A DNA stretch of 64,000 bases from sequence record MK327947.1, one strand, 5' to 3'. The DNA is from Escherichia phage vB_EcoM_G5211. Every line of letters starts with the position of its first letter. Positions within the stretch are counted from its first letter, which is position 1. Under the pieces are notes generated by a model. That model saw only the letters and a list, made by a program, of their open reading frames with translations, had not been told where the DNA came from and did not search any database. Shown here one piece after another: positions 36,698 through 61,767 of this stretch. The translations under genes and the position numbers were made by a program.

Positions 36698-36973
36698 TCA
36701 GGACATTGCCCGTTTGAATGCGTCCATTATAACAGTGTTATTTGGCTTGTCAACACGTTTTTGAACTTTATTTTTAAATTTTTTGTTGATGTGGTGTTTA
36801 CGATAAACAACCTTTTCACGGTTGGCGTAAGCCTCGCGTGCATCTTTTACCATCAACCATGCCTTAGCCGCATCTTGTCCGCTGATCCCGCCAATCTTTT
36901 TAGCAATATCAACAAAATTAAGACCGTGGTCTTCTCGTAGCATGTAAACCATTAACGCTGTTTTCTTGTCCAT
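36698..36973 (-). CDS. Hypothetical protein (91 aa from internal ATG of the 127-aa ORF)
   Basis: ATG at 36973 overlaps the stop of the upstream ORF (ATGA), suggesting translational coupling; longer ORF 36698-37081 is the alternative. Confidence 0.4.
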   Translation of the reverse strand: MDKKTALMVYMLREDHGLNFVDIAKKIGGISGQDAAKAWLMVKDAREAYANREKVVYRKHHINKKFKNKVQKRVDKPNNTVIMDAFKRAMS

Positions 36974-44753: not shown

Positions 44754-45840
44754 TGTCTCAATAAAACTTTATCAGGATTATGAGGCATTTCTAAATCATC
44801 GCTTTATAGAATTGGGTGCTACCTTTGTTACAATGACTCTGCGTGATTCGATTCGTGGGGTGAACGAAGGATTGTTGCAATTCTATGATAATAAGGCGAT
44901 GCATACAAAATTAAACGGGAGAGAGATCATTCAGATTTCGCTATCAACTGCTAATACAGATGAAGTGTTTAACCGAATCTATGGGATCTCTCATAGTAAT
45001 GTAACAATTGACCAAAAATCCGACAACATTTTAACATTCCAGTTAAAGAGCTATCACGAAACACTAAACCTTAAATTTTCCCGCTCATTGACAAATAACG
45101 CTGTTAATAACGTAACTAGCATGATTGATGCCATCTATAAGGAAGTTCCTTTATGGAAACCTACTATAAAGGGTGATAACGTTGTTATTCCTCGTTGTCC
45201 GTGGGTTAGTACCATAAATGACTATATGGATTTTGTGAGGGCATACGGGCAAAGCGTAGAAACAGAGTCTTTCGTGTATTGCTGGGAAGATTTTGATGGT
45301 ATAACGATCGCTGGACACGATACAATATTAAAAAATGAGCCAATACCAGCTATAATCTGTGAGCCTAGACTCATGGGGCAATTTATTGATATGTCGCCTA
45401 ATCTGATGGTTTTTAATTTCGAGTGGAAGACTAAGAGCAATGCTAAAGTTAAAAATTCATTTAGCAATGTGACATACACAACTATTGATTTTGTTACTAA
45501 GCAGTATAATAAAATTATTGTTGGTAATGGGGATAATATTGCACACTTTGCTCATGGTGGCGCTTATGGCGATTTAACTTATAAGAATGCGTTTTTGGAA
45601 GGTTCTAAACTTGCCACAATAGAACAATATGATTCATATGCTACCGCCGTGTGTCACGGTAATTTTTCGTTGCGCCCCGGTATGGTTATTCGATTCTTTG
45701 ATGAGAAGCAACAAGCACGCAATGATTTTATTGTTGACGAAGTGGTGCATGAAATTAGCCGAGAGCAATCATTAACTCACCTGTATATGATCGGTAACAG
45801 CGAAGAATTACAGGAAGTCAAATTTGAAGGTAAGATATAA
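44731..45840 (+). CDS. 27: gp27 baseplate hub protein
   Basis: 369 aa; synteny. Confidence 0.8.
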   Translation: MQRTGFPNVSIKLYQDYEAFLNHRFIELGATFVTMTLRDSIRGVNEGLLQFYDNKAMHTKLNGREIIQISLSTANTDEVFNRIYGISHSNVTIDQKSDNILTFQLKSYHETLNLKFSRSLTNNAVNNVTSMIDAIYKEVPLWKPTIKGDNVVIPRCPWVSTINDYMDFVRAYGQSVETESFVYCWEDFDGITIAGHDTILKNEPIPAIICEPRLMGQFIDMSPNLMVFNFEWKTKSNAKVKNSFSNVTYTTIDFVTKQYNKIIVGNGDNIAHFAHGGAYGDLTYKNAFLEGSKLATIEQYDSYATAVCHGNFSLRPGMVIRFFDEKQQARNDFIVDEVVHEISREQSLTHLYMIGNSEELQEVKFEGKI

Positions 45841-51416: not shown

Positions 51417-51494
51417 TTTAAACCTCCCATATAACAGAAAACGGGGCTAGTATAAAACTAGTCCCCGTTTGAGTCAACCATTATTTCTTAAAAA

Positions 51495-53546
51495 TTACAT
51501 TTTAAATTTATCTGGCATTGCGTCTACAGATACCAGATCAGCGATAAGCTGACGTAGAGTTGCCTTATCTGCTTTCTTACGTTCGGTTTTAGCTTCGCTA
51601 ATGAAGCTGGAGAAAGACAGGTCAGAAGCAGGTTTAATAACACCTTCACGGATGAATGCATCACCGTCCGCGATCATCTCGCCAGATTCTTGTAATGCTG
51701 CCAGTTCATTTTTGTTCATAATATGTGCCTCAATGTAATAAGTTTCTTGTGAATCCGTCGATGCCGTAGCACGAGTTACCGTATCAAAGGATAACACAAC
51801 ACCGCGAGGAAGTAAAATCTCGCATTCTTTGTAAGCAAATGCTTTGTTACCTACTGGCAATACAGGGATGTTTTCCGCGCCAGCAATGGAGAAAGCAACA
51901 TTAGCGCCACCTTCACCGCGAGAGCCAGCCATAGAATCAACACCAGCAACGGCACTAGCCACGTTTGCATTCCAGCCGCCAAAAATGTTAGGTGCAAGGG
52001 AAGTGCTCACATAGTTTTTAAAGTAAAACGCTTTTTGCTTACGTGCAGTTTCCCACATTTGCGACCGGAAGTCCATACCACGATACAGAATAGTACCCGG
52101 ATCAAGTTTAACGCCATAGTTGGAGAAGGCATTATCCAGTGCATCGCACATCTTGACCAATTCTTCTGGATCTGCGATGCCTTCAAACTCTTCCAGCTTA
52201 CGGTCGGTTAGGAAGTTGTTCATATTGATGTATGCTGCATCGGCATATTCGCTCAACACAAAACCTTCCGCGCCCGGCAGATCAAGATCAATATCTGCCA
52301 TCATTTCACCCATGTTGCTAGCAATTGCTTCAAACATACCGGAAGCAACATTACGTAGGGCATCGGTTTTAATCTGGGTGATGTGACTACGCAGCATTTC
52401 AGCTTTTACATCTGCTGGCATAGACTGGTCTACTCGATCCATTGCCAGGGCGGTGATCTTGTTTTCGAATACTTCCTCGCTCATGATTTCTTTTAAGCGT
52501 TTGATTGATGCTGCGATAACTTCCGCAGACAATGGATCATATTGATCCTGAACTTTTACCAGTTCGCTTACTGCGTATTTTGCATCGGCTTCGCTTTCAA
52601 AAATAGTACGCATGAAACCATAGCGAGTGATAATATCACTTGTCCAGTCATTCAGAGAACGGGCGGTTGAACGTTCTAAGGCTTGACGATCAATCAGAGT
52701 ATTAAACTGTTTCTTAGGTTCGGCTTCGGTGATATCTTCTTCCGGTTTAAGATTAATTTTTTCTGGATGATTCACATAGTCGCTGTTATAGGTCGCTTGA
52801 GTTTTCAGCATTTCTTCTTTAGTCAAACGAGATTTAGCCGCTACGCGTTGTTCTGCTTCCGCGTTTCGTTCTTCTTCTGACACAAGACTAGCCGCATATG
52901 CCTCATCTTTAGTCAGAGATTCACCAGTAGCCTTAGATACCCAGCGATCACCTAAATCACTTTCTACTTTAGTGAACAAGGATTCATCAAGTTTAATCCC
53001 TTTAATCTTATCAATCGCCATCCCGCGACGCTTGACAACAACTAAAGCGATCTTTTTGCTGGTCATTACTTCCTGCTGGAATACTTCAAACTTCGGTGTA
53101 CGACGCACCAAACGCTCTATAACGCGCTTAACCAGTTCGGTCTTACCTTTCATGCGGGATACGTTAAAACGGAACATAACAGCGTCTAATTGCGCTTTAC
53201 GGGCTGTTTCCATAACCACATCAAAAGCACTTGACATAACTGCAATCGGGTTATCGCCTAGACCATTTTTAAGCTGTACAATACGACCGCTTTTGTTCAT
53301 TTCGCACAGTACAACATGTGCGGTCTTGTCACCCATACGAATGATTTTAGGTGTTTTGTTGGTGAAGTTACAAAGACGGACAATCACATCTTTATCGCGT
53401 GTCTGTACTGCAAAAAGCTGTTTAGGATTCTGCTTAGGCTTTAAGCACTGTACCGGAGCAATACTGCCAAAGTTTTCTTCCTCTTCCGTCAACAGCCATT
53501 TCTCGAAAGATTCAATCATTAGATCGTCGATTTCTAAGTTAAACAT
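51495..53546 (-). CDS. alt: Alt ADP-ribosyltransferase
   Basis: 683 aa (T4 Alt 682 aa); ILYRGMDFRS, YVSTSLAP, ECEILLPRG motifs; position next to gene 54. Confidence 0.85.
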   Translation of the reverse strand: MFNLEIDDLMIESFEKWLLTEEEENFGSIAPVQCLKPKQNPKQLFAVQTRDKDVIVRLCNFTNKTPKIIRMGDKTAHVVLCEMNKSGRIVQLKNGLGDNPIAVMSSAFDVVMETARKAQLDAVMFRFNVSRMKGKTELVKRVIERLVRRTPKFEVFQQEVMTSKKIALVVVKRRGMAIDKIKGIKLDESLFTKVESDLGDRWVSKATGESLTKDEAYAASLVSEEERNAEAEQRVAAKSRLTKEEMLKTQATYNSDYVNHPEKINLKPEEDITEAEPKKQFNTLIDRQALERSTARSLNDWTSDIITRYGFMRTIFESEADAKYAVSELVKVQDQYDPLSAEVIAASIKRLKEIMSEEVFENKITALAMDRVDQSMPADVKAEMLRSHITQIKTDALRNVASGMFEAIASNMGEMMADIDLDLPGAEGFVLSEYADAAYINMNNFLTDRKLEEFEGIADPEELVKMCDALDNAFSNYGVKLDPGTILYRGMDFRSQMWETARKQKAFYFKNYVSTSLAPNIFGGWNANVASAVAGVDSMAGSRGEGGANVAFSIAGAENIPVLPVGNKAFAYKECEILLPRGVVLSFDTVTRATASTDSQETYYIEAHIMNKNELAALQESGEMIADGDAFIREGVIKPASDLSFSSFISEAKTERKKADKATLRQLIADLVSVDAMPDKFKM

Positions 53547-53587
53547 TTTATATCCTCTAGTTGATAACCTATAAACCTATATTTATG

Positions 53588-53607
53588 AAAAGGGGGCTTA
53601 ACGCCCC
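53588..53607 (-). terminator. Rho-independent terminator (minus strand)
   Basis: A-run + hairpin gggggc-ttaa-cgcccc; identical motif at 57610-57630. Confidence 0.6.
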
Positions 53608-53612
53608 ATTTA

Positions 53613-53825
53613 TTATAATGCACCATCGAGCAATTGCTCTAAGGTGTATCCTGAATAGTCTTTTTCAATCAGGATATATTTTCCTACTCGTTTAATACAA
53701 CCACGCATTTCAACGTATTCTGCGTAGTTGATGGTACGAGTTGTTCCATCTTCCAGTAATGCAGTACCGATTTCGTTAATGCGGTCATAAGTTACGTCGG
53801 TAATGATGATTTCGATGTTAGCCAT
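53613..53825 (-). CDS. Hypothetical early protein (70 aa)
   Basis: RBS aaggag; own promoter cassette upstream. Confidence 0.5.
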   Translation of the reverse strand: MANIEIIITDVTYDRINEIGTALLEDGTTRTINYAEYVEMRGCIKRVGKYILIEKDYSGYTLEQLLDGAL

Positions 53826-53861
53826 TTGATACTCCTTAGTAGTTCGTTTCGGTATGGGTGT

Positions 53862-53890
53862 ATTATGATATACACCCTCTGTTATGTCAA
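53862..53890 (-). promoter_or_regulatory. Early promoter cassette (TTGACA, 17 nt, CATAAT) on minus strand
   Basis: One of nine near-identical cassettes: -35, -10, conserved leader with RBS. Confidence 0.65.
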
Positions 53891-53896
53891 CAACTT

Positions 53897-54076
53897 TTAG
53901 AACATTTTTGAAATTAATTCTGCTTTGATTTCGCAGAGAACATCTAAAGATTTCTCGTCACCCGCTTTTGCTGCTTCTGCTTGCATTTTTGAAATGGCTT
54001 CAATGTCAGTGCAATTATAAGCCGCTTGAACTTTAGCGATTGCGATGATTGCCGATTCGATGGTTAAGTGTTTCAT
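53897..54076 (-). CDS. Hypothetical early protein (59 aa)
   Basis: ORF MKHLTIESAI... with RBS ggagaatc and promoter; below ORF-track cutoff. Confidence 0.4.
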   Translation of the reverse strand: MKHLTIESAIIAIAKVQAAYNCTDIEAISKMQAEAAKAGDEKSLDVLCEIKAELISKMF

Positions 54077-54108
54077 GTTTGATTCTCCTTTCGTTTCGGT
54101 ATGTGTGC

Positions 54109-54138
54109 ATTATAGGGGATCTCCGACCCCCCTGTCAA
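54109..54138 (-). promoter_or_regulatory. Early promoter cassette (TTGACA, 18 nt, TATAAT) with GATC palindrome in spacer
   Basis: tgtcaa at 54133-54138, attata at 54109-54114; spacer ggggatctccgacccccc. Confidence 0.65.
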
Positions 54139-54145
54139 CAACTTT

Positions 54146-54664
54146 TTAGTTATTTTTTAATTGCTCATCTTGCAATAGGGCAATCACATGCTGGCGATGT
54201 TCTTCCGATTGAGGAACACCGAAAAAGTTTGTTTTGTAGAAATACTCTAATCGGTCTTCTCGTGTGCTCTCTTCCATCATGATCGCGGGTAGTCCGAGAT
54301 TTCGGAAACGTCGCTTTTCTGCTGGCGTAAAATCACTGTAATACAACATAGAATCATCATTACCAGCAATGCTAAACTCATCATTCATGAAGGAGAATAT
54401 TGCGTTTAAACGCTGTTTACCGTCCACGATTTCGATCTCATAGCGAGAGCCATCATCAATCTTAGCCATTGCGATAGCACCAACCGGAAAATCATTAATC
54501 AGGTTTTCGATAAACATACGTTTGTTTTCGGTGTCCCATACCAAAGGACGCTGATAATCTGGGTTCATGTTGATATAGCCATCTTCTAACCATGCATCAT
54601 AAACAGAGATGACAAAGTTTTTAGTATTGGTATAGTAACGGCGTTTAGGCGTTAAACGGTTCAT
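54146..54664 (-). CDS. DUF262 / ParB-like nuclease-domain protein (DGQQR-type motif)
   Basis: PDYQRPLVWD and IVDGKQRLNAI motifs; ATG at 54664 immediately follows upstream stop (alternative start 54700); about 172 aa. Confidence 0.6.
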   Translation of the reverse strand: MNRLTPKRRYYTNTKNFVISVYDAWLEDGYINMNPDYQRPLVWDTENKRMFIENLINDFPVGAIAMAKIDDGSRYEIEIVDGKQRLNAIFSFMNDEFSIAGNDDSMLYYSDFTPAEKRRFRNLGLPAIMMEESTREDRLEYFYKTNFFGVPQSEEHRQHVIALLQDEQLKNN

Positions 54665-54665
54665 G

Positions 54666-54995
54666 TTATAGTCTCCTGAATGGATCATCACGTAAATCAA
54701 TATCTTTTAAGAACTCATCCCATGAATGGCGGATATTGTTCTTAATTCTCCAGATAAGCGCAGGGATTGAACGCTCTCCCATCTGGAAGTAAGGATCATA
54801 TGATCCGTATGCCCAATATGCTACTACAATTCCACAGTCAGCGCAATAGTATTCTATTTCACTTGCTGGCGACCAAAGTCCATCAATATGATCAGTGATC
54901 TTGCTTTCGATGTTATGACTATGACAATCAGGGCAACGGATGCAATGACCTTGTTTATCGTAATTTGACGTTAGAGAATACTTAAACAATCTCAT
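54666..54995 (-). CDS. Cys-rich zinc-ribbon protein (109 aa)
   Basis: CIRCPDC and CADCG Cys pairs; start overlaps upstream stop (TAATG). Confidence 0.5.
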   Translation of the reverse strand: MRLFKYSLTSNYDKQGHCIRCPDCHSHNIESKITDHIDGLWSPASEIEYYCADCGIVVAYWAYGSYDPYFQMGERSIPALIWRIKNNIRHSWDEFLKDIDLRDDPFRRL

Positions 54996-55711
54996 TATAG
55001 ATCCTTATTGGCTTCAAATACTGCCTTTGCGAATCCTCGCGGGGTAAGTGACCTGATAGTCTTTGTTCTGGTTCCTTTCCCGCCTAGCTTAGAATGCTGT
55101 TTACTGTACCCTTTATTAATCTGCAACGGTTTCTTTTCTGGCATTATAAAGCCTTGTCCGGTCCATAAGCAAGTCTTTTTCGGGTACATATCACGGGCGG
55201 CAATATACTCAGGAAACGTAGGATGCTTATCATCTTCCGGCAAATAACCGCCATATTCCCACGGATGGAACATGTAATCAGGCTTACGCCACATACTAGA
55301 GATAACGCTTACAGGATTCTCTATCATGTAGGGAACTCCTAGCCATTCACCCAAATAAGCGGTTATTTTAGCTGTCCGTACATCATGAACTTGAATCAAT
55401 GGTCCTTGTTCTCGTTTCTTTCGTTCAAAGTGTGCAGCGCCACTAACAGCTAAATTGGTGCACGGTGGGAATGCAAAGATAATATCCGGTTTCCCCCATT
55501 CAAGGTCCATTGCTCTTTCCAGCCAGTTCAAATCAATCCAGGTGTTTACATAAGTAATGTTTGGATGTTCAAATCTGGTATTATACTTTTTGTATGTACC
55601 GTGGTCGGCGTCATCCGCATTAAAGCAGACTACCTTATGACCTGCTTTAGCCCATTCTAGCCCCATTATCCCCGATCCGTCAAAGTTGCAGAATATTAAT
55701 TTTTGTTTCAT
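54995..55711 (-). CDS. Compact DNA cytosine-5 methyltransferase-like protein
   Basis: Motif I-like FDGSGIMG, motif IV PC (FAFPPCTN), motif VI-like IENPV, C-terminal RSLTPRGFAKAV; 238 aa, short for a canonical C5-MTase. Confidence 0.5.
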   Translation of the reverse strand: MKQKLIFCNFDGSGIMGLEWAKAGHKVVCFNADDADHGTYKKYNTRFEHPNITYVNTWIDLNWLERAMDLEWGKPDIIFAFPPCTNLAVSGAAHFERKKREQGPLIQVHDVRTAKITAYLGEWLGVPYMIENPVSVISSMWRKPDYMFHPWEYGGYLPEDDKHPTFPEYIAARDMYPKKTCLWTGQGFIMPEKKPLQINKGYSKQHSKLGGKGTRTKTIRSLTPRGFAKAVFEANKDL

Positions 55712-55949
55712 ATACCACCCTTTAACCCAGCACAGATTTTAGTCGGTTCTTTACCGTGCCACATTAAGTAAAGTCCGTTAATGCGACCTTGTTTTGTGTG
55801 TGATTCTTTTCTAATCTTCTTATAGTGTCGTGCTTCCTCAACTTATTGTTTAGAATACCAATCATAAAGGAAGAGGCACAAAGGCCAACCATTAGCGGCC
55901 TTAATGCAGTTATTAAGAAATTCCTTATTGCGTTTAATTAATTTTCTTT

Positions 55950-56201
55950 TCACGCTACCCCCATTGGTTTGATAGTAACAGAATCTAAAAGACCTTTGTT
56001 AGCCAGTTCGCGGCAAGTTTTCAGATCCGCAACTTCCCAGCCAGCCGCAATCAGGTTATCAATCAGGCTGTTAGCAACTTCTTCGCTCATGAAAGAGCAC
56101 TGTTTGCCGATGGTGTAGCGCACACGCTGTAATTTCAGTTTACGGAAGCCTTTAACGTTCAGGTCTTTAGCGATTTTCTTTGCGGTTTCGATGTTAGCCA
56201 T
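55950..56201 (-). CDS. Hypothetical early protein (83 aa)
   Basis: ORF with promoter cassette upstream. Confidence 0.5.
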   Translation of the reverse strand: MANIETAKKIAKDLNVKGFRKLKLQRVRYTIGKQCSFMSEEVANSLIDNLIAAGWEVADLKTCRELANKGLLDSVTIKPMGVA

Positions 56202-56241
56202 TGTTTGATTCTCCTAAGTGGTATCTCGTCTTGATGGTTGT

Positions 56242-56270
56242 ATTGTAGGGGAGTTATCCTCCCCTGTCAA
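56242..56270 (-). promoter_or_regulatory. Early promoter cassette (TTGACA, 17 nt, TACAAT) with palindromic spacer
   Basis: Spacer ggggagttatcctcccc is an inverted repeat. Confidence 0.6.
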
Positions 56271-56284
56271 CACTTTTTATAAAA

Positions 56285-56452
56285 TTATTTGTTAATTTCT
56301 GGTGCGTTGCTAGGATAGTAACCTTCTTTAACTCCGAGGTATTTCGCAACCATCCCTACAATCTTCTGTGCTACTACAATGTCAAATTTCAGATAATCTT
56401 CGCCGTGGGTTTCAATGATATATGCTTCACATGCTGCTTTAGTCTCGAACAT
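56285..56452 (-). CDS. Small protein (55 aa), paralog of 59551-59718
   Basis: MFETKAACEAYIIETHGEDYLKFDIVVAQK...; 48/55 residues identical to the second copy. Confidence 0.55.
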   Translation of the reverse strand: MFETKAACEAYIIETHGEDYLKFDIVVAQKIVGMVAKYLGVKEGYYPSNAPEINK

Positions 56453-56485
56453 TTTGATTCTCCTATTTCGTTTCGGTATGTGTGT

Positions 56486-56514
56486 AGTATAGGGGATCTC
56501 CCGATCCCCGTCAA
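56486..56514 (-). promoter_or_regulatory. Early promoter cassette (TTGACG, 17 nt, TATACT) with GATC palindrome
   Basis: Spacer gggatcgggagatcccc; conserved leader and RBS. Confidence 0.6.
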
Positions 56515-56528
56515 CAACTTTTTTAAAA

Positions 56529-56810
56529 TTATTCGTGATTAGTTTCGATATTGTGCATTTTGCACCAGTTCAGCCAATCGCCCAGATCTTTATAGTTGAT
56601 GCTTTTATCTGCTGCCATCGTTTTTGTCTTGATACCCATATGTGCGTTATGAGTAAGCATTTTTACAGTGAACTCAATTTTATCGCCTTTAGCTTTAACA
56701 TCAACCAGTTTGGTCCACTGGCTACCAGCGCCGCGAATGTTCATACCAACGATGTTTCCGATGTATGCTTCTTTGTTTTTCAGGATTTCGGTTGCTTTGA
56801 TGAATTTCAT
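56529..56810 (-). CDS. Hypothetical early protein (93 aa)
   Basis: ORF with promoter cassette upstream. Confidence 0.5.
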   Translation of the reverse strand: MKFIKATEILKNKEAYIGNIVGMNIRGAGSQWTKLVDVKAKGDKIEFTVKMLTHNAHMGIKTKTMAADKSINYKDLGDWLNWCKMHNIETNHE

Positions 56811-56843
56811 TTTTGATTCTCCAGTTCGTTTCGGTATGGGTGT

Positions 56844-56872
56844 ATTATGCTATGTTCTTACTTTGGTGTCAA
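56844..56872 (-). promoter_or_regulatory. Early promoter cassette (TTGACA, 17 nt, CATAAT)
   Basis: tgtcaa 56867-56872 and attatg 56844-56849 on plus strand. Confidence 0.65.
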
Positions 56873-56880
56873 CAACTTTT

Positions 56881-57150
56881 TTAGATATTTTCAGAAATAA
56901 ATTTTAAAACTTGACGTAAATGTTTCTCATCTTTGATAGTCGCCGGAAGTTCTTCTTTTACTTCCTGTGCAAGATAGATATTTCCGTTCCAAGTGAAAGA
57001 TCCGTCTTTGTTTACGCGATAGCTGAACATCCACTCGCAATCATTTTCGATTTCATATACACACAGAAGGGTGTAATCGTTAAAGCTATTGATTTCAAGG
57101 TCGAAGCCGTGACGTTTTGCAAAGTTGGTAGTGGTTTTAGTCAGTGCCAT
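56881..57150 (-). CDS. Hypothetical early protein (89 aa)
   Basis: ORF with promoter cassette upstream. Confidence 0.5.
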   Translation of the reverse strand: MALTKTTTNFAKRHGFDLEINSFNDYTLLCVYEIENDCEWMFSYRVNKDGSFTWNGNIYLAQEVKEELPATIKDEKHLRQVLKFISENI

Positions 57151-57190
57151 TGTTTGATTCTCCTAAGTGGTATCTCGTTTCGATGGGTGT

Positions 57191-57219
57191 ATTATGCTAT
57201 AGGCTAGATCAGGTGTCAA
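57191..57219 (-). promoter_or_regulatory. Early promoter cassette (TTGACA, 17 nt, CATAAT)
   Basis: tgtcaa 57214-57219 and attatg 57191-57196. Confidence 0.65.
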
Positions 57220-57242
57220 CAACTTTTTTAATTTTTTGGAAA

Positions 57243-57270
57243 TAAAAAAAGCCGACACTAAGGTCGGCTA
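57243..57270 (-). terminator. Rho-independent terminator (minus strand)
   Basis: A7 + hairpin gccgac-actaag-gtcggc. Confidence 0.6.
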
Positions 57271-57276
57271 ATAAAA

Positions 57277-57585
57277 TCATTTAGACAAATAATCATTCTG
57301 TGCAATCCGGTCGGCGTATGCTGGTGTTATGTCAATCGCCAGCACTTTAACGCGTGCTTTCTTGCGACCTGTGTTTTCTCGTAACCAGTGCTCATGACCG
57401 TGAACATTTTTATACTGCGATGCTTCTTCGAAGGTACGGATCGGACCTGGATAATCTGCGTAAAGGATCTCTAGGTCTTCGGTGATGTAAAAATATACAT
57501 CATAATTACTGTTCTCTAGTTTAAGCAGAGACTTTCGGAACATTGGGAGATTTTCGCGGGTAAATTCAAAGATATTATCTTTCAT
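57277..57585 (-). CDS. Small protein of the H-x-H-W paralog family (102 aa)
   Basis: YDVYFYITEDLEILYADY...HGHEHW...VKVLAIDI; paralogs at 58005, 58298, 59016. Confidence 0.55.
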   Translation of the reverse strand: MKDNIFEFTRENLPMFRKSLLKLENSNYDVYFYITEDLEILYADYPGPIRTFEEASQYKNVHGHEHWLRENTGRKKARVKVLAIDITPAYADRIAQNDYLSK

Positions 57586-57609
57586 AGTATTATCCTCAAT
57601 AGTTGGATG

Positions 57610-57630
57610 AAAAGGGGGCTTAACGCCCCC
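57610..57630 (-). terminator. Rho-independent terminator (minus strand)
   Basis: A-run + hairpin gggggc-ttaa-cgccccc; same motif as 53588. Confidence 0.6.
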
Positions 57631-57635
57631 ATATA

Positions 57636-57923
57636 TTAAAACAGACCTTCCTGTACACCGTAGTAGAGTTCATCGCTGATAATTTCATTAATGCGACGGT
57701 GTGCATATTCCTGATTTGCGAAGTTGTCAGCAAGTTCTACTTTAGTTTCGCCGTCATGAGTCCATTTAGTGATAACTTTACCATCTGCAAATTTGAAGTT
57801 GAACTCTTTAGCTACCGCATCGCGTACCAGACGTGCAAACTTATTGTTGCGGATTGCATTGTCGGTTTCGTGTGCAGCGTGAGCGAATTTGTTAACTTTC
57901 AGAGTGATAGTAATGTATGCCAT
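57636..57923 (-). CDS. Hypothetical early protein (95 aa)
   Basis: ORF with promoter cassette upstream and terminator downstream. Confidence 0.5.
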   Translation of the reverse strand: MAYITITLKVNKFAHAAHETDNAIRNNKFARLVRDAVAKEFNFKFADGKVITKWTHDGETKVELADNFANQEYAHRRINEIISDELYYGVQEGLF

Positions 57924-57969
57924 AATTTGATTCTCCTAGTTAGAAAGTGTATCTCGTTTCGATGGGTGT

Positions 57970-57998
57970 ATTATGCTATACACCCAACCTCATGTCAA
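57970..57998 (-). promoter_or_regulatory. Early promoter cassette (TTGACA, 17 nt, CATAAT)
   Basis: tgtcaa 57993-57998 and attatg 57970-57975. Confidence 0.65.
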
Positions 57999-58004
57999 CA
58001 CTTT

Positions 58005-58283
58005 TTATAAAATAATTTTTTGATATTTTTCTATGATGTTCGTGTAATTCACATCAACCGCTAGCACCGTTGCTTCGAATCCACCGTTTAGCCAATGGCT
58101 ATGATCGTGATCGTGAAAGAAACCTAGACCAGTACGAAGACCTTCTTTATATTCGGCGCGTACATTTAGATCATCATCGATAAACAGATAAAACCATGAA
58201 TTTTTACTAGGATTGATGATACAACCTTTCAGATTCGGGAGAATATCACGACTAAGAATAAACTTATCACCTACTTTGAACAT
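58005..58283 (-). CDS. Small protein of the H-x-H-W paralog family (92 aa)
   Basis: SWFYLFIDDDLNVRAEY...HDHDHSHW...TVLAVDV. Confidence 0.55.
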   Translation of the reverse strand: MFKVGDKFILSRDILPNLKGCIINPSKNSWFYLFIDDDLNVRAEYKEGLRTGLGFFHDHDHSHWLNGGFEATVLAVDVNYTNIIEKYQKIIL

Positions 58284-58297
58284 AATATTTTCCTCAC

Positions 58298-58606
58298 TTA
58301 TAAAGTTTGACCGTTGTTTTTCGCATAATGCTTAATGCGTGCTTGATCTGCTTCCGCTGGTGATAGATTCCATGCAACCACTACAACTTCTGACGCATCG
58401 TCATCCGTTTCTGATACCCAATGGTTGTGATTCATACAGTTATTTGCTATCGAGTGAGCAAATGATTTCATCACTGGAGACGTATAATCATAGTAACGGA
58501 TTTTCAGATTTTCATCAACATACAAGTAGATCGTATAAGGTTTATATTCAGTAACCAGTAACAGACAGTTACGCAATTCTGGGAAAATCTTTTTAGTTAA
58601 TTTCAT
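58298..58606 (-). CDS. Small protein of the H-x-H-W paralog family (102 aa from ATG 58606)
   Basis: YTIYLYVDENLKIRYYDY...NHNHW...VVVVAWNL; ATG 58606 with RBS gagga, 1 nt after upstream stop. Confidence 0.5.
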   Translation of the reverse strand: MKLTKKIFPELRNCLLLVTEYKPYTIYLYVDENLKIRYYDYTSPVMKSFAHSIANNCMNHNHWVSETDDDASEVVVVAWNLSPAEADQARIKHYAKNNGQTL

Positions 58607-58607
58607 T

Positions 58608-58817
58608 TTATAATCCTCGGTCGCGGCTATAGTACACGGTACGCCATACAATTTCATGTTTCGTGTCGCTCCAGCACACGATCTCATTTACTCTTAAATC
58701 TTTGTTATCAACAAAAGATGAACATTGTGACGCTTCTTTCATCATTTTATCTGCTGTTTTCTCATCAAATACAGCACAGATTTCTTTATACACTCGATAA
58801 TCTTTAAACTTGCTCAT
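58608..58817 (-). CDS. Small protein, MSKFKDY family copy B (69 aa)
   Basis: MSKFKDYRVYKEICAVFDEKTADKMMKEASQC...; paralog of adjacent copy. Confidence 0.45.
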   Translation of the reverse strand: MSKFKDYRVYKEICAVFDEKTADKMMKEASQCSSFVDNKDLRVNEIVCWSDTKHEIVWRTVYYSRDRGL

Positions 58818-58819
58818 AA

Positions 58820-59035
58820 TTAACACCAATCAAGAGTTTTTGAGAAAACCTCTATCCATTGTTGAGTATATGCGGTTTCTTTCCATGATACAATACCAGT
58901 AGAATAATGGTTTTTGTTTCCAGAAAATGACGGGCATTTTGATGCATCTTCCATCATCTTTTCGGCGAACTCTGGTTCGTATACTCGCAAGATCTGTTGA
59001 TATGCTTTATAATCTTTAAATTTGCTCATAATCAT
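58820..59035 (-). CDS. Small protein, MSKFKDY family copy A (71 aa)
   Basis: MIMSKFKDYKAYQQILRVYEPEFAEKMMEDASKC...; tandem to copy B. Confidence 0.45.
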   Translation of the reverse strand: MIMSKFKDYKAYQQILRVYEPEFAEKMMEDASKCPSFSGNKNHYSTGIVSWKETAYTQQWIEVFSKTLDWC

Positions 59036-59294
59036 TCACTACCTTATCAGCTTCTTTTGTTGTTTTTACATCAACTGCGATAACCCGTAAAGGTTCGTCA
59101 TGGTTCCACCAATGATCGTGAATATCGGCTTGTGATTTATCACCAAAGGAATCACGAATATCATTTTTACTTTTATAGCTAATGTGACCGTCATAGTCAA
59201 CATAAAGGTAATTATCGAAAATCGGCGTTTTTAAGATCATGCCGAAAAATCTTTCTTTGTGTGTCTTATCCAGCGTTGCAGTAATTCGCATCAT
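59016..59294 (-). CDS. Small protein of the H-x-H-W paralog family (92 aa)
   Basis: NYLYVDYDGHISYKSKND...HDHWW...RVIAVDV. Confidence 0.55.
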   Translation of the reverse strand: MMRITATLDKTHKERFFGMILKTPIFDNYLYVDYDGHISYKSKNDIRDSFGDKSQADIHDHWWNHDEPLRVIAVDVKTTKEADKVVNDYEQI

Positions 59295-59306
59295 AATATA
59301 TTCCTC

Positions 59307-59486
59307 TTAGAAAGGGATGGTCATTTCTTGAGCTTGTACATTCTCGTTAGGATTAAACTTCATCCAACCAATATTGTCTACCAGCATATGCACATTTTTA
59401 TCATATCCTACGTGAGTAGTCAACACTAAATGTGATTTACCTTCAACGATGATTTCCATGTACTTCTGAACTTCGATAGCTTTCAT
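59307..59486 (-). CDS. Hypothetical early protein (59 aa)
   Basis: ORF MKAIEVQKYMEII... with RBS ggagaatc; below ORF-track cutoff. Confidence 0.4.
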   Translation of the reverse strand: MKAIEVQKYMEIIVEGKSHLVLTTHVGYDKNVHMLVDNIGWMKFNPNENVQAQEMTIPF

Positions 59487-59518
59487 TTTGATTCTCCGTT
59501 TGTTGTCTTGATGGGAGT

Positions 59519-59547
59519 ATCTTACTACTCCCTTTAATCATTGTCAA
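59519..59547 (-). promoter_or_regulatory. Early promoter cassette (TTGACA, 17 nt, TAAGAT)
   Basis: tgtcaa 59542-59547; weaker -10. Confidence 0.45.
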
Positions 59548-59550
59548 CTA

Positions 59551-59718
59551 TTATTTGTTAATTTCTGGTGCGTTGCTTGGATAGTAACCTTCTTTAACAC
59601 CCAGATATTTTGCAACCATTCCGGTGATCTTCTGTGCTACTACGATATCGAATTTCAGGTAGTCTTCACCGTGTTTTGCTACAATGTATGCTTCGCATTC
59701 TGCTTTAGTCTGGAACAT
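59551..59718 (-). CDS. Small protein (55 aa), paralog of 56285-56452
   Basis: MFQTKAECEAYIVAKHGEDYLKFDIVVAQK...; own promoter. Confidence 0.55.
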   Translation of the reverse strand: MFQTKAECEAYIVAKHGEDYLKFDIVVAQKITGMVAKYLGVKEGYYPSNAPEINK

Positions 59719-59752
59719 TTTTGATTCTCCTATATCTCGTTGGTATGTGTGT

Positions 59753-59782
59753 ATTATAGGGGATCTCCCGATCCCCTGTCAA
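59753..59782 (-). promoter_or_regulatory. Early promoter cassette (TTGACA, 18 nt, TATAAT) with GATC palindrome
   Basis: Spacer ggggatctcccgatcccc, identical to the 56492-56508 spacer core. Confidence 0.65.
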
Positions 59783-59795
59783 CAACTTTTTTGAA

Positions 59796-60272
59796 TTATT
59801 TTTCTTGATGCTCGCGCTCGTACTTTTCGAAATAAAATTCTACTGGCTGGTCATGAATTGACAGCAAGCCAAAGCGTTTAGCCGCTCGCAATCCCATATT
59901 GCGCTGAATGTACTTCTGGAAGTTCTCGCGTATACACTTACGCCAGTATTCTAAGCCCATACAGCTTTTATAAAGATTGCATTGTACACACGCCGGATTC
60001 ATGTTATCAAGTATATCATGTTCCGGTTTATGCATTCCTACAACCTTATACTTCCACGACCCATCATCATTACGGGCAATTCGTCCATTTTCATCATAGA
60101 CTACCTTTGAGCGTCGCAATACTGGTTTGATATGGTCTGCGTGCCAGCGATCCCCTAGTTCCTCGCCACAATAGGCACAACGCCCACCGTATTTCATTTT
60201 CAGGATCTGGCGTTGCTCTTTCTTTGACAATTTTTTAGGTTTAGGGGCTTTCGCCCCTTCATTATCACACAT
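59796..60272 (-). CDS. HNH endonuclease (possible homing endonuclease)
   Basis: CAYCGE...HADHIKPV...N...CVQCN: Cys pair-HNH-Cys pair architecture; 158 aa; overlaps ligase stop. Confidence 0.7.
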   Translation of the reverse strand: MCDNEGAKAPKPKKLSKKEQRQILKMKYGGRCAYCGEELGDRWHADHIKPVLRRSKVVYDENGRIARNDDGSWKYKVVGMHKPEHDILDNMNPACVQCNLYKSCMGLEYWRKCIRENFQKYIQRNMGLRAAKRFGLLSIHDQPVEFYFEKYEREHQEK

Positions 60273-61767
60273 CGAATACCTCTTTTACTGTATTTGCCGT
60301 GGTCTTGTCGTAGCGAATACGTTTGATGATTGGGAGAAATAAAGAGAACTCCGGTTCATCTTCTTTACGTGATTTGCTGCGGATATACCCGTTGCATGTC
60401 ATCTCAATGACTTTTCCAATCAGGTTATGACGGTCAGCCCATAACATTTCTCGGTCGAGTTCATTTCGACGATCGAACGGAATTACACGTTCGATACCAT
60501 CATCACCTTTTTCGGTTGTGGTGTCGGTTAATCCCGATCCGGTGTTAGTCATCATTCGTCCGCACGCACTACGGACAGTAAAACCGCCTACCTTATTGGG
60601 GTCTTTACTATGCGGATATACATCAACAATTTCCGCGTCGAAGTCAATAACTTCTTTAAATTTAACCTGATCTTTACTGCGACGATCTTCAAATACACCA
60701 TGTAAATTTTTAAGGATAATACCTTCTAAGCCCATGTTTACATAGCGATGATATACTTCGCGAGCTTCATCGATATTGTTAACTACAGTGTTTTCGATTA
60801 TCTGAACACGAGGATCGTTAAGTTCTTCAACAATCTGTTTTAGTTCTTCGAATCGATCTTTATATTGCTTCGTTGCTTTCTCGTTTCCGTAATACACATC
60901 ACGGTCGATAACATCCCAGACAGTGTAAACAATACATTGGGCTTCTTCTTTTGGAATAGTTCCTTTCAGTGATTTGTTGAGGATACCATTTCCGGTCTGA
61001 CGATCTGCAACAACGGATTCTTTCACTGCTTCCGCTACTGGCGTTAATGGCATTTCATCTTCTTCAAATATCCATGACAGAGTACCATCATAAACGCTCT
61101 CAACGAAGTTCTGCGCTGGTGTTTGCGAAAGGGTAGGCATATATACCAATTCGCCATCTAGAACAATTCCACGGCCTCGTAGACGCTCTAAAACCACAAA
61201 CAAATCATCAAGCCCTTGATAGGTATTACCTGAACGGGTATAGATTGCTAATGTTTCCCCGTCAATATCAGCCATCCCACGAGCGCCATCGCTTTTAAGT
61301 TGTGCATACGCCGGATATTTGATATTGGCAATGGTCTTATCAGAACATGACGATGCAAGGTGGCACGGCTGCTGAGGAATCAGTTTCTTCCATACCTTGT
61401 TTGCGGTGGTAGCGGAACAACCGCATTCTAGGTCTCGATTCAGGACCATCATTGCAACTTTAGCATCGTCTTCCGACAAGCAAGTCAGAGTATCGGTAAC
61501 TAGCTGTAATGCTGCATTACCAGTTATTTGACGCGTGGCAAGTTTATTTTTAAAGACCTGTAATGCGCCAGATAAAGACAATACAGATGAATAACGCGAC
61601 GGTTTATCGTATTTCTTTACGCCAAACGTAACCTGTTTGCAATATGCCAGATAAAAGCATTCTTTCAGCGTTTCATTGCTTGCAGATTCTTTCAGGATCT
61701 TTTCTTTCAGCGATGTTTTGTCTGTTGCTGCAAGCTGATTAATGATATTAAGAATTGACATTTTCAC
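60265..61767 (-). CDS. 30: ATP-dependent DNA ligase
   Basis: 500 aa; adenylation motif AQLKSDGARG; LATRQITGNAA and DLECG segments parallel T4 ligase. Confidence 0.9.
   Translation of the reverse strand: MKMSILNIINQLAATDKTSLKEKILKESASNETLKECFYLAYCKQVTFGVKKYDKPSRYSSVLSLSGALQVFKNKLATRQITGNAALQLVTDTLTCLSEDDAKVAMMVLNRDLECGCSATTANKVWKKLIPQQPCHLASSCSDKTIANIKYPAYAQLKSDGARGMADIDGETLAIYTRSGNTYQGLDDLFVVLERLRGRGIVLDGELVYMPTLSQTPAQNFVESVYDGTLSWIFEEDEMPLTPVAEAVKESVVADRQTGNGILNKSLKGTIPKEEAQCIVYTVWDVIDRDVYYGNEKATKQYKDRFEELKQIVEELNDPRVQIIENTVVNNIDEAREVYHRYVNMGLEGIILKNLHGVFEDRRSKDQVKFKEVIDFDAEIVDVYPHSKDPNKVGGFTVRSACGRMMTNTGSGLTDTTTEKGDDGIERVIPFDRRNELDREMLWADRHNLIGKVIEMTCNGYIRSKSRKEDEPEFSLFLPIIKRIRYDKTTANTVKEVFDV

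Follow-up and report, generated by a model that had tools for sequence, protein, structure and literature searches.

A hyperplastic region of Escherichia phage vB_EcoM_G5211 holds nine repeated cassettes that are very probably RB49-type promoter-early stem-loops

Escherichia phage vB_EcoM_G5211 (sequence record MK327947.1) carries, between alt and gene 30, a run of small minus-strand open reading frames (ORFs) among which a composite regulatory cassette recurs. We analyzed this locus in a 64,000-nucleotide stretch of the genome (the window, 64 kb; all coordinates are positions in it). A preliminary description of the window had remarked that alt stands next to gene 30 in T4, which agrees with the T4 order of alt, alt.1 and gene 30, and had placed about 20 small minus-strand ORFs between these genes. 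That count was right: there are 19 between alt and an HNH endonuclease ORF, or 20 with the HNH ORF included, few of them with an assigned function. The HNH ORF (59796-60272) intervenes between the cassette at 59718..59800 and the ligase gene.

Cassettes were obtained from the minus strand of 53500-59850 by extracting the 110 nt before each start codon, followed by multiple alignment. Together with nhmmer, the alignment settles at exactly nine a count previously given as at least nine. The copies lie at 53824-59800, one per 250-2100 bp in a single orientation, and serve the ATGs at 59718, 59486, 57923, 57150, 56810, 56452, 56201, 54076 and 53825. The features of the locus are as follows (ORF numbers are those of RB49 and phi1; aa, amino acids; RBS, ribosome-binding site).

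60265..61767, minus strand: gene 30 (ATP-dependent DNA ligase), upstream flank; ortholog annotation
59796..60272, minus strand: HNH endonuclease ORF (ORF212 homolog); Pfam HNH E 5e-6 and annotation
59718..59800, minus strand: PeSL-type cassette of the 55-aa ORF205 homolog; nhmmer E 9e-18; spacer hairpin GGGGATCgggaGATCCCC, -14.9 kcal/mol, z -3.9
59485..59563, minus strand: PeSL-type cassette of the 59-aa ORF204 homolog, the most divergent copy; nhmmer E 3e-11; hairpin GGGAGTAgtaagaTACTCCC over the -10 (TAAGAT), -12.2 kcal/mol, z -4.2
57925..58017, minus strand: PeSL-type cassette of the 95-aa ORF198 homolog; hairpin GGGTGTATagcataATACACCC over the -10 (CATAAT)
57614..57630, minus strand: intrinsic-terminator-like hairpin GGGGGCGTTAAGCCCCC then TTTTC, after ORF198; annotated terminator in GEC-3S
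57250..57269, minus strand: intrinsic-terminator-like hairpin and T run, after ORF197; annotated terminator in GEC-3S
57151..57239, minus strand: PeSL-type cassette of the 89-aa ORF194 homolog; no in-promoter hairpin, intrinsic terminator just upstream (57269-57250)
56809..56893, minus strand: cassette of the 93-aa ORF193 homolog; promoter, leader and RBS present, no stem-loop of any kind
56451..56534, minus strand: PeSL-type cassette of the 55-aa ORF191 homolog; spacer hairpin GGGGATCgggaGATCCCC
56203..56289, minus strand: PeSL-type cassette of the 83-aa ORF190 homolog; spacer hairpin GGGGAGgataaCTCCCC
54075..54159, minus strand: PeSL-type cassette of the 59-aa ORF186 homolog; spacer hairpin GGGGGGTCggaGATCCCC
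53824..53911, minus strand: PeSL-type cassette of the 70-aa ORF185 homolog; hairpin GGGTGTATatcataATACACCC over the -10; RBS GGAGTATCAAATG
53613..59718, minus strand: 19 small cargo ORFs (RB49/phi1 ORFs 185-205 minus 192, 195 and 196); ORF list and orthology
53593..53607, minus strand: intrinsic-terminator-like hairpin GGGGCGTTAAGCCCC then CTTTTC, between ORF185 and alt; annotated terminator in GEC-3S
51495..53546, minus strand: alt (RNA polymerase ADP-ribosyltransferase), downstream flank; ortholog annotation in GEC-3S, RB49 and phi1

The cassettes share one order of parts: the stop codon of the preceding ORF within an A/T tract, a -35 hexamer, a spacer, a -10 hexamer, a block just past the -10, a variable stretch of 0-20 nt, an RBS and the ATG. 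A typical copy measures ~85 nt (range ~80-95 nt), more than the ~70 bp first estimated. The -35 is TTGACA in eight of the nine and TTGACG in the remaining one, the -35/-10 spacer is always 17-18 nt, and the -10 reads CATAAT (four copies), TATAAT (two), TACAAT, TATACT or TAAGAT (one each). The promoter as previously described (TTGACA, 17-18 nt, TATAAT/CATAAT) was therefore right in its spacers and, with one exception, in its -35, but missed three other -10 hexamers. In all nine copies the promoter matches at 10-12 of 12 positions, the block past the -10 reads AC(A/C)C(A/C)CAT(AC)CGAAACGA, and the RBS (GGAG(A/T)ATCAAA) lies 0-3 nt ahead of the ATG. Ahead of the -35, eight copies have an A-rich tract that finishes with AAAAAGT(T)G, the exception being the divergent copy at 59486. 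The preceding gene's stop codon likewise falls within ~20 nt of the -35 in eight, with a terminator intervening at the ninth (57150); at 59718..59800 it is the stop codon of the HNH ORF that falls in the A/T tract.

Similarity among the copies reaches well beyond the hexamers. The alignment has 28 invariant columns; the RBS 11-mer accounts for ten, nine of which are consecutive, and others fall in the block past the -10. From upstream to downstream the invariant blocks are AA.A (A/T tract), GTTGAC, positions within the -10, C..CAT (past the -10) and GGAG.ATCAAA. These blocks are parted by variable spacers, and pairwise identity is only 50-87% (median 63%), so that the copies cannot be called near-identical, as they had been. 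The same holds for two strings singled out earlier: the leader block is conserved, but the exact string acacccataccgaaacga occurs in just two of the nine cassettes, with variants in the rest (e.g., ACACACATACCGAAACGA, ACACCCATCGAAACGA and ACAACCATCAAGACGA), while the RBS string GGAGAATC occurs in eight and is replaced by GGAGTATC in one. The sequence GGAGAATCAA has eight copies in the window, all in the cassette region. An nhmmer profile of the nine, run against the 64 kb, returned the same nine only, all on the minus strand (E 3e-11 to 8e-19), ahead of a next match at E = 0.05. Promoter matches of at least 10 of 12 positions number 11 in the region versus 3.1 ± 1.8 in dinucleotide shuffles, and only this near-consensus class is enriched. 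Since the profile matches these nine alone and near-consensus promoters are in excess, the cassettes are real and far beyond chance. The next match itself, a weak and partial one at 36717-36772 on the minus strand with GTTGACA, is probably an early promoter of another subtype outside the hyperplastic region.

The locus belongs to the genus Krischvirus (RB49-like). Megablast gave 96-97% identity to FL37, FL15, AV108, kvi, ECD7 and phi1, and likewise to RB49, and among the former relatives coverage spans 49-100% and locus length 2.8-8.2 kb. Gene for gene, the stretch from alt through the small ORFs and the HNH ORF to the ligase gene matches RB49/phi1 ORFs 184-213, and the alt-to-ligase stretch is orthologous to ORFs 185-212, the hyperplastic region named HPR3. 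It was in the HPR3 of RB49 and phi1 that PeSLs (promoter-early stem-loops) were defined (Arbiol, Comeau, Kutateladze, Adamia, Krisch 2010, Genome Biol Evol 2:140; PMC2839356), as a stop codon, an AT-rich tract, sigma-70 -35 and -10 hexamers, a stem-loop (most commonly between the hexamers or over the -10), a Shine-Dalgarno sequence (SD) and an ATG, with conservation over ~100 bp. Phi1 has about 52 PeSLs, eight of them in ~5 kb of HPR3 around ORF192 (PMC2839356). The published features are all present in G5211: promoter, A/T tract with stop codon, stem-loop (lacking from one cassette), SD/ATG, orthology, indel sites, and location, all nine facing the same way (minus strand) in the stretch from alt to the HNH/ligase genes, ahead of ORFs that mostly lack an assigned function. 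In the GenBank record of GEC-3S the same sites are already marked as promoters (-35/-10 signals), together with three terminators. The cassette profile finds 10-11 copies at syntenic positions in each of RB49, phi1 and GEC-3S; direct alignments were made to PeSL206/205, 212/210, 192/191 and 193/192. Cassette copies are orthologous across 58 genomes, and blastn matches of the cassette sequence came from Krischvirus records only. In LF73P4, a complete related Krischvirus genome of 163 kb, about 40 copies match the profile, those at 30-55 kb lying on the minus strand and those at 65-132 kb on the plus strand.

The sequence identity, the gene-for-gene match to ORFs 184-213 and the GEC-3S promoter annotation together lead us to conclude, with high confidence, that the nine repeats are PeSLs of RB49-type T4-like phages, i.e., composite regulatory cassettes. 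The preliminary description had likened them to PeSL-type modular cassettes of T4-type hyperplastic regions; because this is the same locus as the HPR3 in which PeSLs were defined, that interpretation coincides with the published account. Element family, genus and locus are thus already known and experimentally backed in the literature, and only a reading of the RBS as a RegB site, discussed below, goes beyond it.

Our own analysis supplies the anatomy, orthology, hairpin stability, breakpoints and chimeras, while promoter strength, terminator activity and mini-circles are known from orthologs in the literature. There, a wild-type clone of PeSL206/205 showed strong promoter activity in a lacZ reporter, promoter-down mutants were the sole clones recoverable for PeSL193/192, and the stem-loop of PeSL211/210 attenuated transcription to a terminator-like level (PMC2839356). 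Inverse PCR detected mini-circles carrying ORFs 192-193 or 191-194, with crossovers between the -10 and the SD/ATG (PMC2839356). By analogy with these orthologs, we infer that the nine G5211 copies fire early.

Hairpins within the promoter (-12 to -15 kcal/mol, z -1.7 to -4.6) were predicted in seven of the nine cassettes, four in the spacer and three over the -10. Of the 35 LF73P4 copies whose promoter is clear, 28 carry such a hairpin within the promoter; of the seven that do not, six are preceded by a strong terminator hairpin. The stems come in several complementary versions: GGGGATC/GATCCCC, GGGGAG/CTCCCC, CGGGGA/TCCCCG, GGGTGTAT/ATACACCC, GGGAGTA/TACTCCC and GGGGGTA/TACCCCC. For the hairpins over the -10, counted in one register, all positions were 100% paired and one of seven pairs covaried (AU 7, GC 3, GU 1), though such pair-level statistics are weak because the stems occupy two registers. 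These comparisons lend modest but consistent support to selection on the stem, mainly through the several distinct complementary versions. The spacer hairpins of three cassettes (59755-59776, 56490-56509 and 54113-54132, minus strand; e.g., GGGGATCgggaGATCCCC) contain one or two GATC (Dam) sites, and Dam methylation state could in principle affect those three promoters or hairpins.

We compared the G5211 locus with ten relatives, taking each cassette as its bounds ± 15 nt. Cassettes occupy ~17% of the region and hold nine of the 17 breakpoint clusters (binomial p ~8e-4, a value that is only indicative because breakpoints shared by related genomes are not independent). Units present in some genomes and absent from others are bounded by cassettes: ORF186 is missing from Cognac, phiS and MIZ4 (junction 53866/54090); an insertion at 56521-56533 is ORF192 in RB49 and another gene in JSE; RB49 and MIZ4 have ORFs 195-196 as an insertion at 57172/57268; and G5211 lacks, at 59745-59812, the ORF206-210 block (1.2-1.9 kb) that stands between ORF205 and the HNH ORF in nearly all related genomes. 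The resulting ORF205-PeSL-HNH junction, searched in 58 matched related records, is contiguous only in phiS and is found in two pieces in PTE-Eco09.

Judged by alignment, two G5211 cassettes (59718 and 56452) are visible recombinants of RB49/phi1 PeSLs. In a three-way alignment, the cassette at 59718 follows phi1 PeSL212/210 from the upstream flank through the A/T tract, -35 and hairpin to the TATAAT, and then PeSL206/205 in its leader and ORF, with the switch point directly past the -10. In the cassette at 56452, the 3' end of ORF193 is joined to PeSL192/191 within the A/T tract, leaving one PeSL where RB49 has PeSL193/192, ORF192 and PeSL192/191, which is the phi1 topology (figure 3 of PMC2839356). 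With gene-plus-cassette units differing among relatives at cassette boundaries, the breakpoint clusters and these two chimeras, the cassette-mediated gene shuffling proposed in the preliminary description is supported.

In the mechanism that these data and the published work suggest, each PeSL would end the preceding small gene, whose stop codon lies in the A/T tract; a G/C-rich stem-loop, in most cassettes, would attenuate upstream read-through; a near-consensus sigma-70 early promoter would restart transcription; and the next small gene would receive a short unstructured leader and a strong GGAG RBS. Copies of an ~85-nt module, all facing the same way and 250-2100 bp apart, allow crossover between them by the phage's homologous recombination, which would delete, insert or swap gene-plus-cassette units with expression intact.

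Relative to the HPR3 of RB49 and phi1, G5211 is alike in genus, locus, orthologous copies, architecture and indel-junction role, and its crossover zones (the A/T tract, and the stretch from the -10 to the SD) are also alike; it differs only in arrangement, having the phi1 topology at ORF191/193 and lacking ORFs 195-196 and the ORF206-210 block. The PeSLs and PmSLs of PST/T4 and nt-1/KVP40 (Comeau, Arbiol, Krisch 2014; PMC4122927) are similarly promoter and stem-loop modules that precede ORFans in hyperplastic regions and are associated with indels, but they have other consensus sequences (TTTACW...TAYWAT and TTGYVH...TAWWAT), other stems, and stem-loops upstream of the promoter (PMC4122927). 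Morons and integron gene cassettes are comparable in that small genes with their own expression signals are gained or lost as units, whereas PeSLs have no integrase or attC and their mobility is ascribed to homologous recombination between regulatory repeats (PMC2839356).

Several further points, besides the non-independence of breakpoints, weigh against the PeSL reading. Breakpoint clusters also lie away from cassettes (at 54661, 55703-55949, 58811 and 59031-59164), and cassettes are therefore not the sole recombination sites. Two cassettes have no in-promoter hairpin, the one at 57151-57239 having a terminator hairpin upstream and the one at 56809-56893 no stem-loop. Most of the in-promoter hairpins have no trailing U-run and so are not canonical intrinsic terminators, and only a single published reporter assay, on another copy, backs the attenuator role suggested for them. 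No Krischvirus transcriptome, of G5211 or any other member, came up in a literature search.

Conservation of the block past the -10 reaches beyond this locus. Anchored at the -10, all 35 LF73P4 promoters share TATAAT-AC.C.CAT(C|ACC)GAAAC, in which the part past the -10 is as rich in information as the hexamers, whereas their spacers are variable. Such conservation next to variable spacers argues for selection on the discriminator and initial transcribed sequence, and not for recombinational homogenization alone. Predicted G5211 leaders are 26-40 nt long and weakly folded (minimum free energy -2 to -8 kcal/mol over ~75 nt), and the mean unpaired probability of the RBS 11-mer in predicted transcripts is 0.43-0.71. 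Folding of these transcripts revealed no conserved leader hairpin, and a structured riboregulator was dropped as a candidate on that ground; an Rfam scan of 53000-60500 (E <= 1) returned only a chance snoU54 match below threshold, so the leader is not a known RNA family.

A shared post-transcriptional control element was nonetheless part of the preliminary description, and one form of it survives as a tentative proposal that we consider possible, if somewhat improbable: leader and RBS may also be a shut-off signal, with GGAGAAUCAAA as a target of the phage endoribonuclease RegB acting with ribosomal protein S1 (RegB/S1). This would add a layer to the PeSL reading and would not replace it. RegB cuts inside the GGAG of early-mRNA SD sequences and so silences early mRNAs after the early period. 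The RegB/S1 target is a single-stranded 11-nt sequence, GGAGRAYARAA, with a T4 optimum of GGAGAAUAAAA (Durand et al. 2006; PMC1702504). The cassette RBS resembles these T4 sites in its GGAG and A-rich 7-mer and in its position before early genes, and GGAGAAUCAAA fits the consensus at 10 of 11 positions (PMC1702504); GGAG, which forms the 5' end of the target (GGA plus G or U at position 4), is present in the RBS of all nine cassettes, and the leaders are short and weakly structured. At position 8 the cassette 11-mer has C, not the strongly preferred A, and this is the main doubt about the candidate site.

The genus does have the enzyme. The RegB of RB49 is reported to be divergent yet active, with in vivo cleavage of the GGAU SD of its own gene (PMC3014915). 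A RegB homolog is also encoded in LF73P4 (44932-45339, minus strand; 42% identity to T4 RegB over 152 aa, tblastn E 3e-29) whose translation start region is GGAUAAUAAAAUG; the gene just upstream of it is PeSL-driven. Further, GGAGAATCAAA has 19 copies in the 163-kb LF73P4 genome, each just ahead of a start codon, and GGAG stands in the SD region of 20/23 PeSL-driven genes versus 47/185 others (Fisher p 1e-8, with crude gene calls). Against the proposal, no site in the LF73P4 genome matches the RegB consensus at 11/11 positions, a GGAG followed by an A-rich stretch is in any case a good ribosome-binding site, regB lies outside the 64-kb window, and the two PeSL papers (2010 and 2014) do not mention RegB or the leader. 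A literature search for the RBS 11-mer returned nothing relevant. We extend the proposal only with some doubt to the view that the block past the -10 (predicted starts AUCGAAAC or AUACCGAAAC) and GGAGAAUCAAA are both selected beyond recombination homology, such that each PeSL would be a self-contained on/off switch for expression: sigma-70 initiation would be strong, the leader uniform and unstructured and translation efficient, until timed RegB/S1 cleavage in the SD turned it off.

The LF73P4 pattern also speaks for another view: each cassette would be no more than a strong early promoter whose initial transcribed region and RBS are optimized, the copies would be alike through selection for expression alone, and recombination at them would be incidental, with no role in mobility. 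The 35 promoters span both early-transcribed arms and recombinational homogenization alone would not yield their pattern; moreover, T4-type recombination needs just short homology (PMC2839356, discussion). We find this view doubtful as a full account, for it leaves unexplained both the conservation of stem-loops via compensatory changes and the enrichment of indel junctions at cassettes. It is, however, largely compatible with the PeSLs being mobility cassettes.

Arbiol et al. speculated on a dedicated recombinase or nuclease (PMC2839356), for which the GGGG...CCCC stem-loop would be the binding site, making the shuffling site-specific and not homologous. In its favor, the HNH endonuclease ORF abuts the cassette at 59718..59800. 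We think this explanation very improbable, however, as the crossovers seen here lie in the A/T tract and just past the -10 and not at a single set point within the stem, two cassettes have no in-promoter stem and one of them nonetheless bounds an indel (57172), and Pfam and phrog-based annotation found no integrase or recombinase gene among the cargo. That the resemblance is mere chance, limited to promoter hexamers, has next to no likelihood: looser promoter matches of at least 9 of 12 positions are indeed not enriched (26 versus 19.8 ± 4.8 expected), but the invariant columns, the profile E-values and orthology across 58 genomes refute it.

The cassettes' cargo is only partly recognizable. 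Functions could be identified for a GmrSD_N-domain protein (54146-54664), a Zn-ribbon protein (54666-54995) and a DNA methyltransferase (54995-55711, phrog_757). These lie in a cassette-free block at 54146-55953 on the minus strand, in which translationally coupled genes follow ORF190 under the single PeSL at 56203-56289: the GmrSD_N/DUF262-only protein (172 aa, N-terminal domain only), the Zn-ribbon protein (109 aa), the methyltransferase (238 aa) and ORF189.1. From its content, the block may be a DNA-modification or anti-restriction module. Within the methyltransferase gene, ~175 bp (55158-55336) are ~80% nucleotide-identical to the ~48-kb Salmonella phages NBSal001, F115, F61, vB_GS156 and Sephi301i, which hints at exchange of this gene beyond Krischvirus; the composition profile shows no GC anomaly marking a foreign island. 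At codon 37 the ORF189.1 homolog (55708-55953, minus strand) has a stop, TAA, in place of the TCA found in the gene for the 81-aa protein of GEC-3S, RB49 and FL37; this nonsense change has probably inactivated it in G5211.

Three sets of paralogs occur among the small minus-strand ORFs. Four belong to phrog_9345, two of them weakly (57277-57585, 58005-58283, 58298-58618 and 59016-59294), two to phrog_8471 (58608-58817 and 58820-59035), and two to phrog_8009 (56285-56452 and 59551-59718), with 85% nucleotide identity over 172 nt. As judged from such similarities, the region is built by duplication as well as shuffling.

At the edges of the region, the HNH ORF (59796-60272) and the 3' end of the ligase gene (60265-61767) overlap by 8 nt at 60265-60272; this homing-type nuclease gene is thus tightly packed on gene 30, as it is in phi1 and GEC-3S. 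The same terminator hairpin, GGGG(G)CGTTAAGCCCC(C) with a T-run, is used twice on the minus strand (53593-53607 and 57614-57630), and the gene after each copy (alt and ORF197, respectively) has no cassette and a GAGGATA-type RBS. Just downstream of alt, a further PeSL-like element (51449-51477, minus strand; TTGACT-N17-TATACT) has a hairpin, GGGGACTAG...CTAGCCCC then GTTTTC, that overlaps the -10, and a different leader, GGGAGGTTTAAAATG. It precedes an Alt-like ADP-ribosyltransferase ORF and is a promoter in the GEC-3S annotation.

PeSLs are a published answer to how a fixed core genome coexists with rapid swapping of accessory genes in T4-like phages: repeated regulatory cassettes serve as portable homology, and whole genes therefore travel with their expression signals. 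With G5211 the best-studied PeSL locus gains one more natural arrangement, and the 10 additional genomes agree with this model. The G5211 locus opens no new question, and its sole testable extension is that the cassette RBS may be a RegB shut-off site as well. If that were true, any gene that came to lie between two cassettes would by that fact alone be expressed only early.

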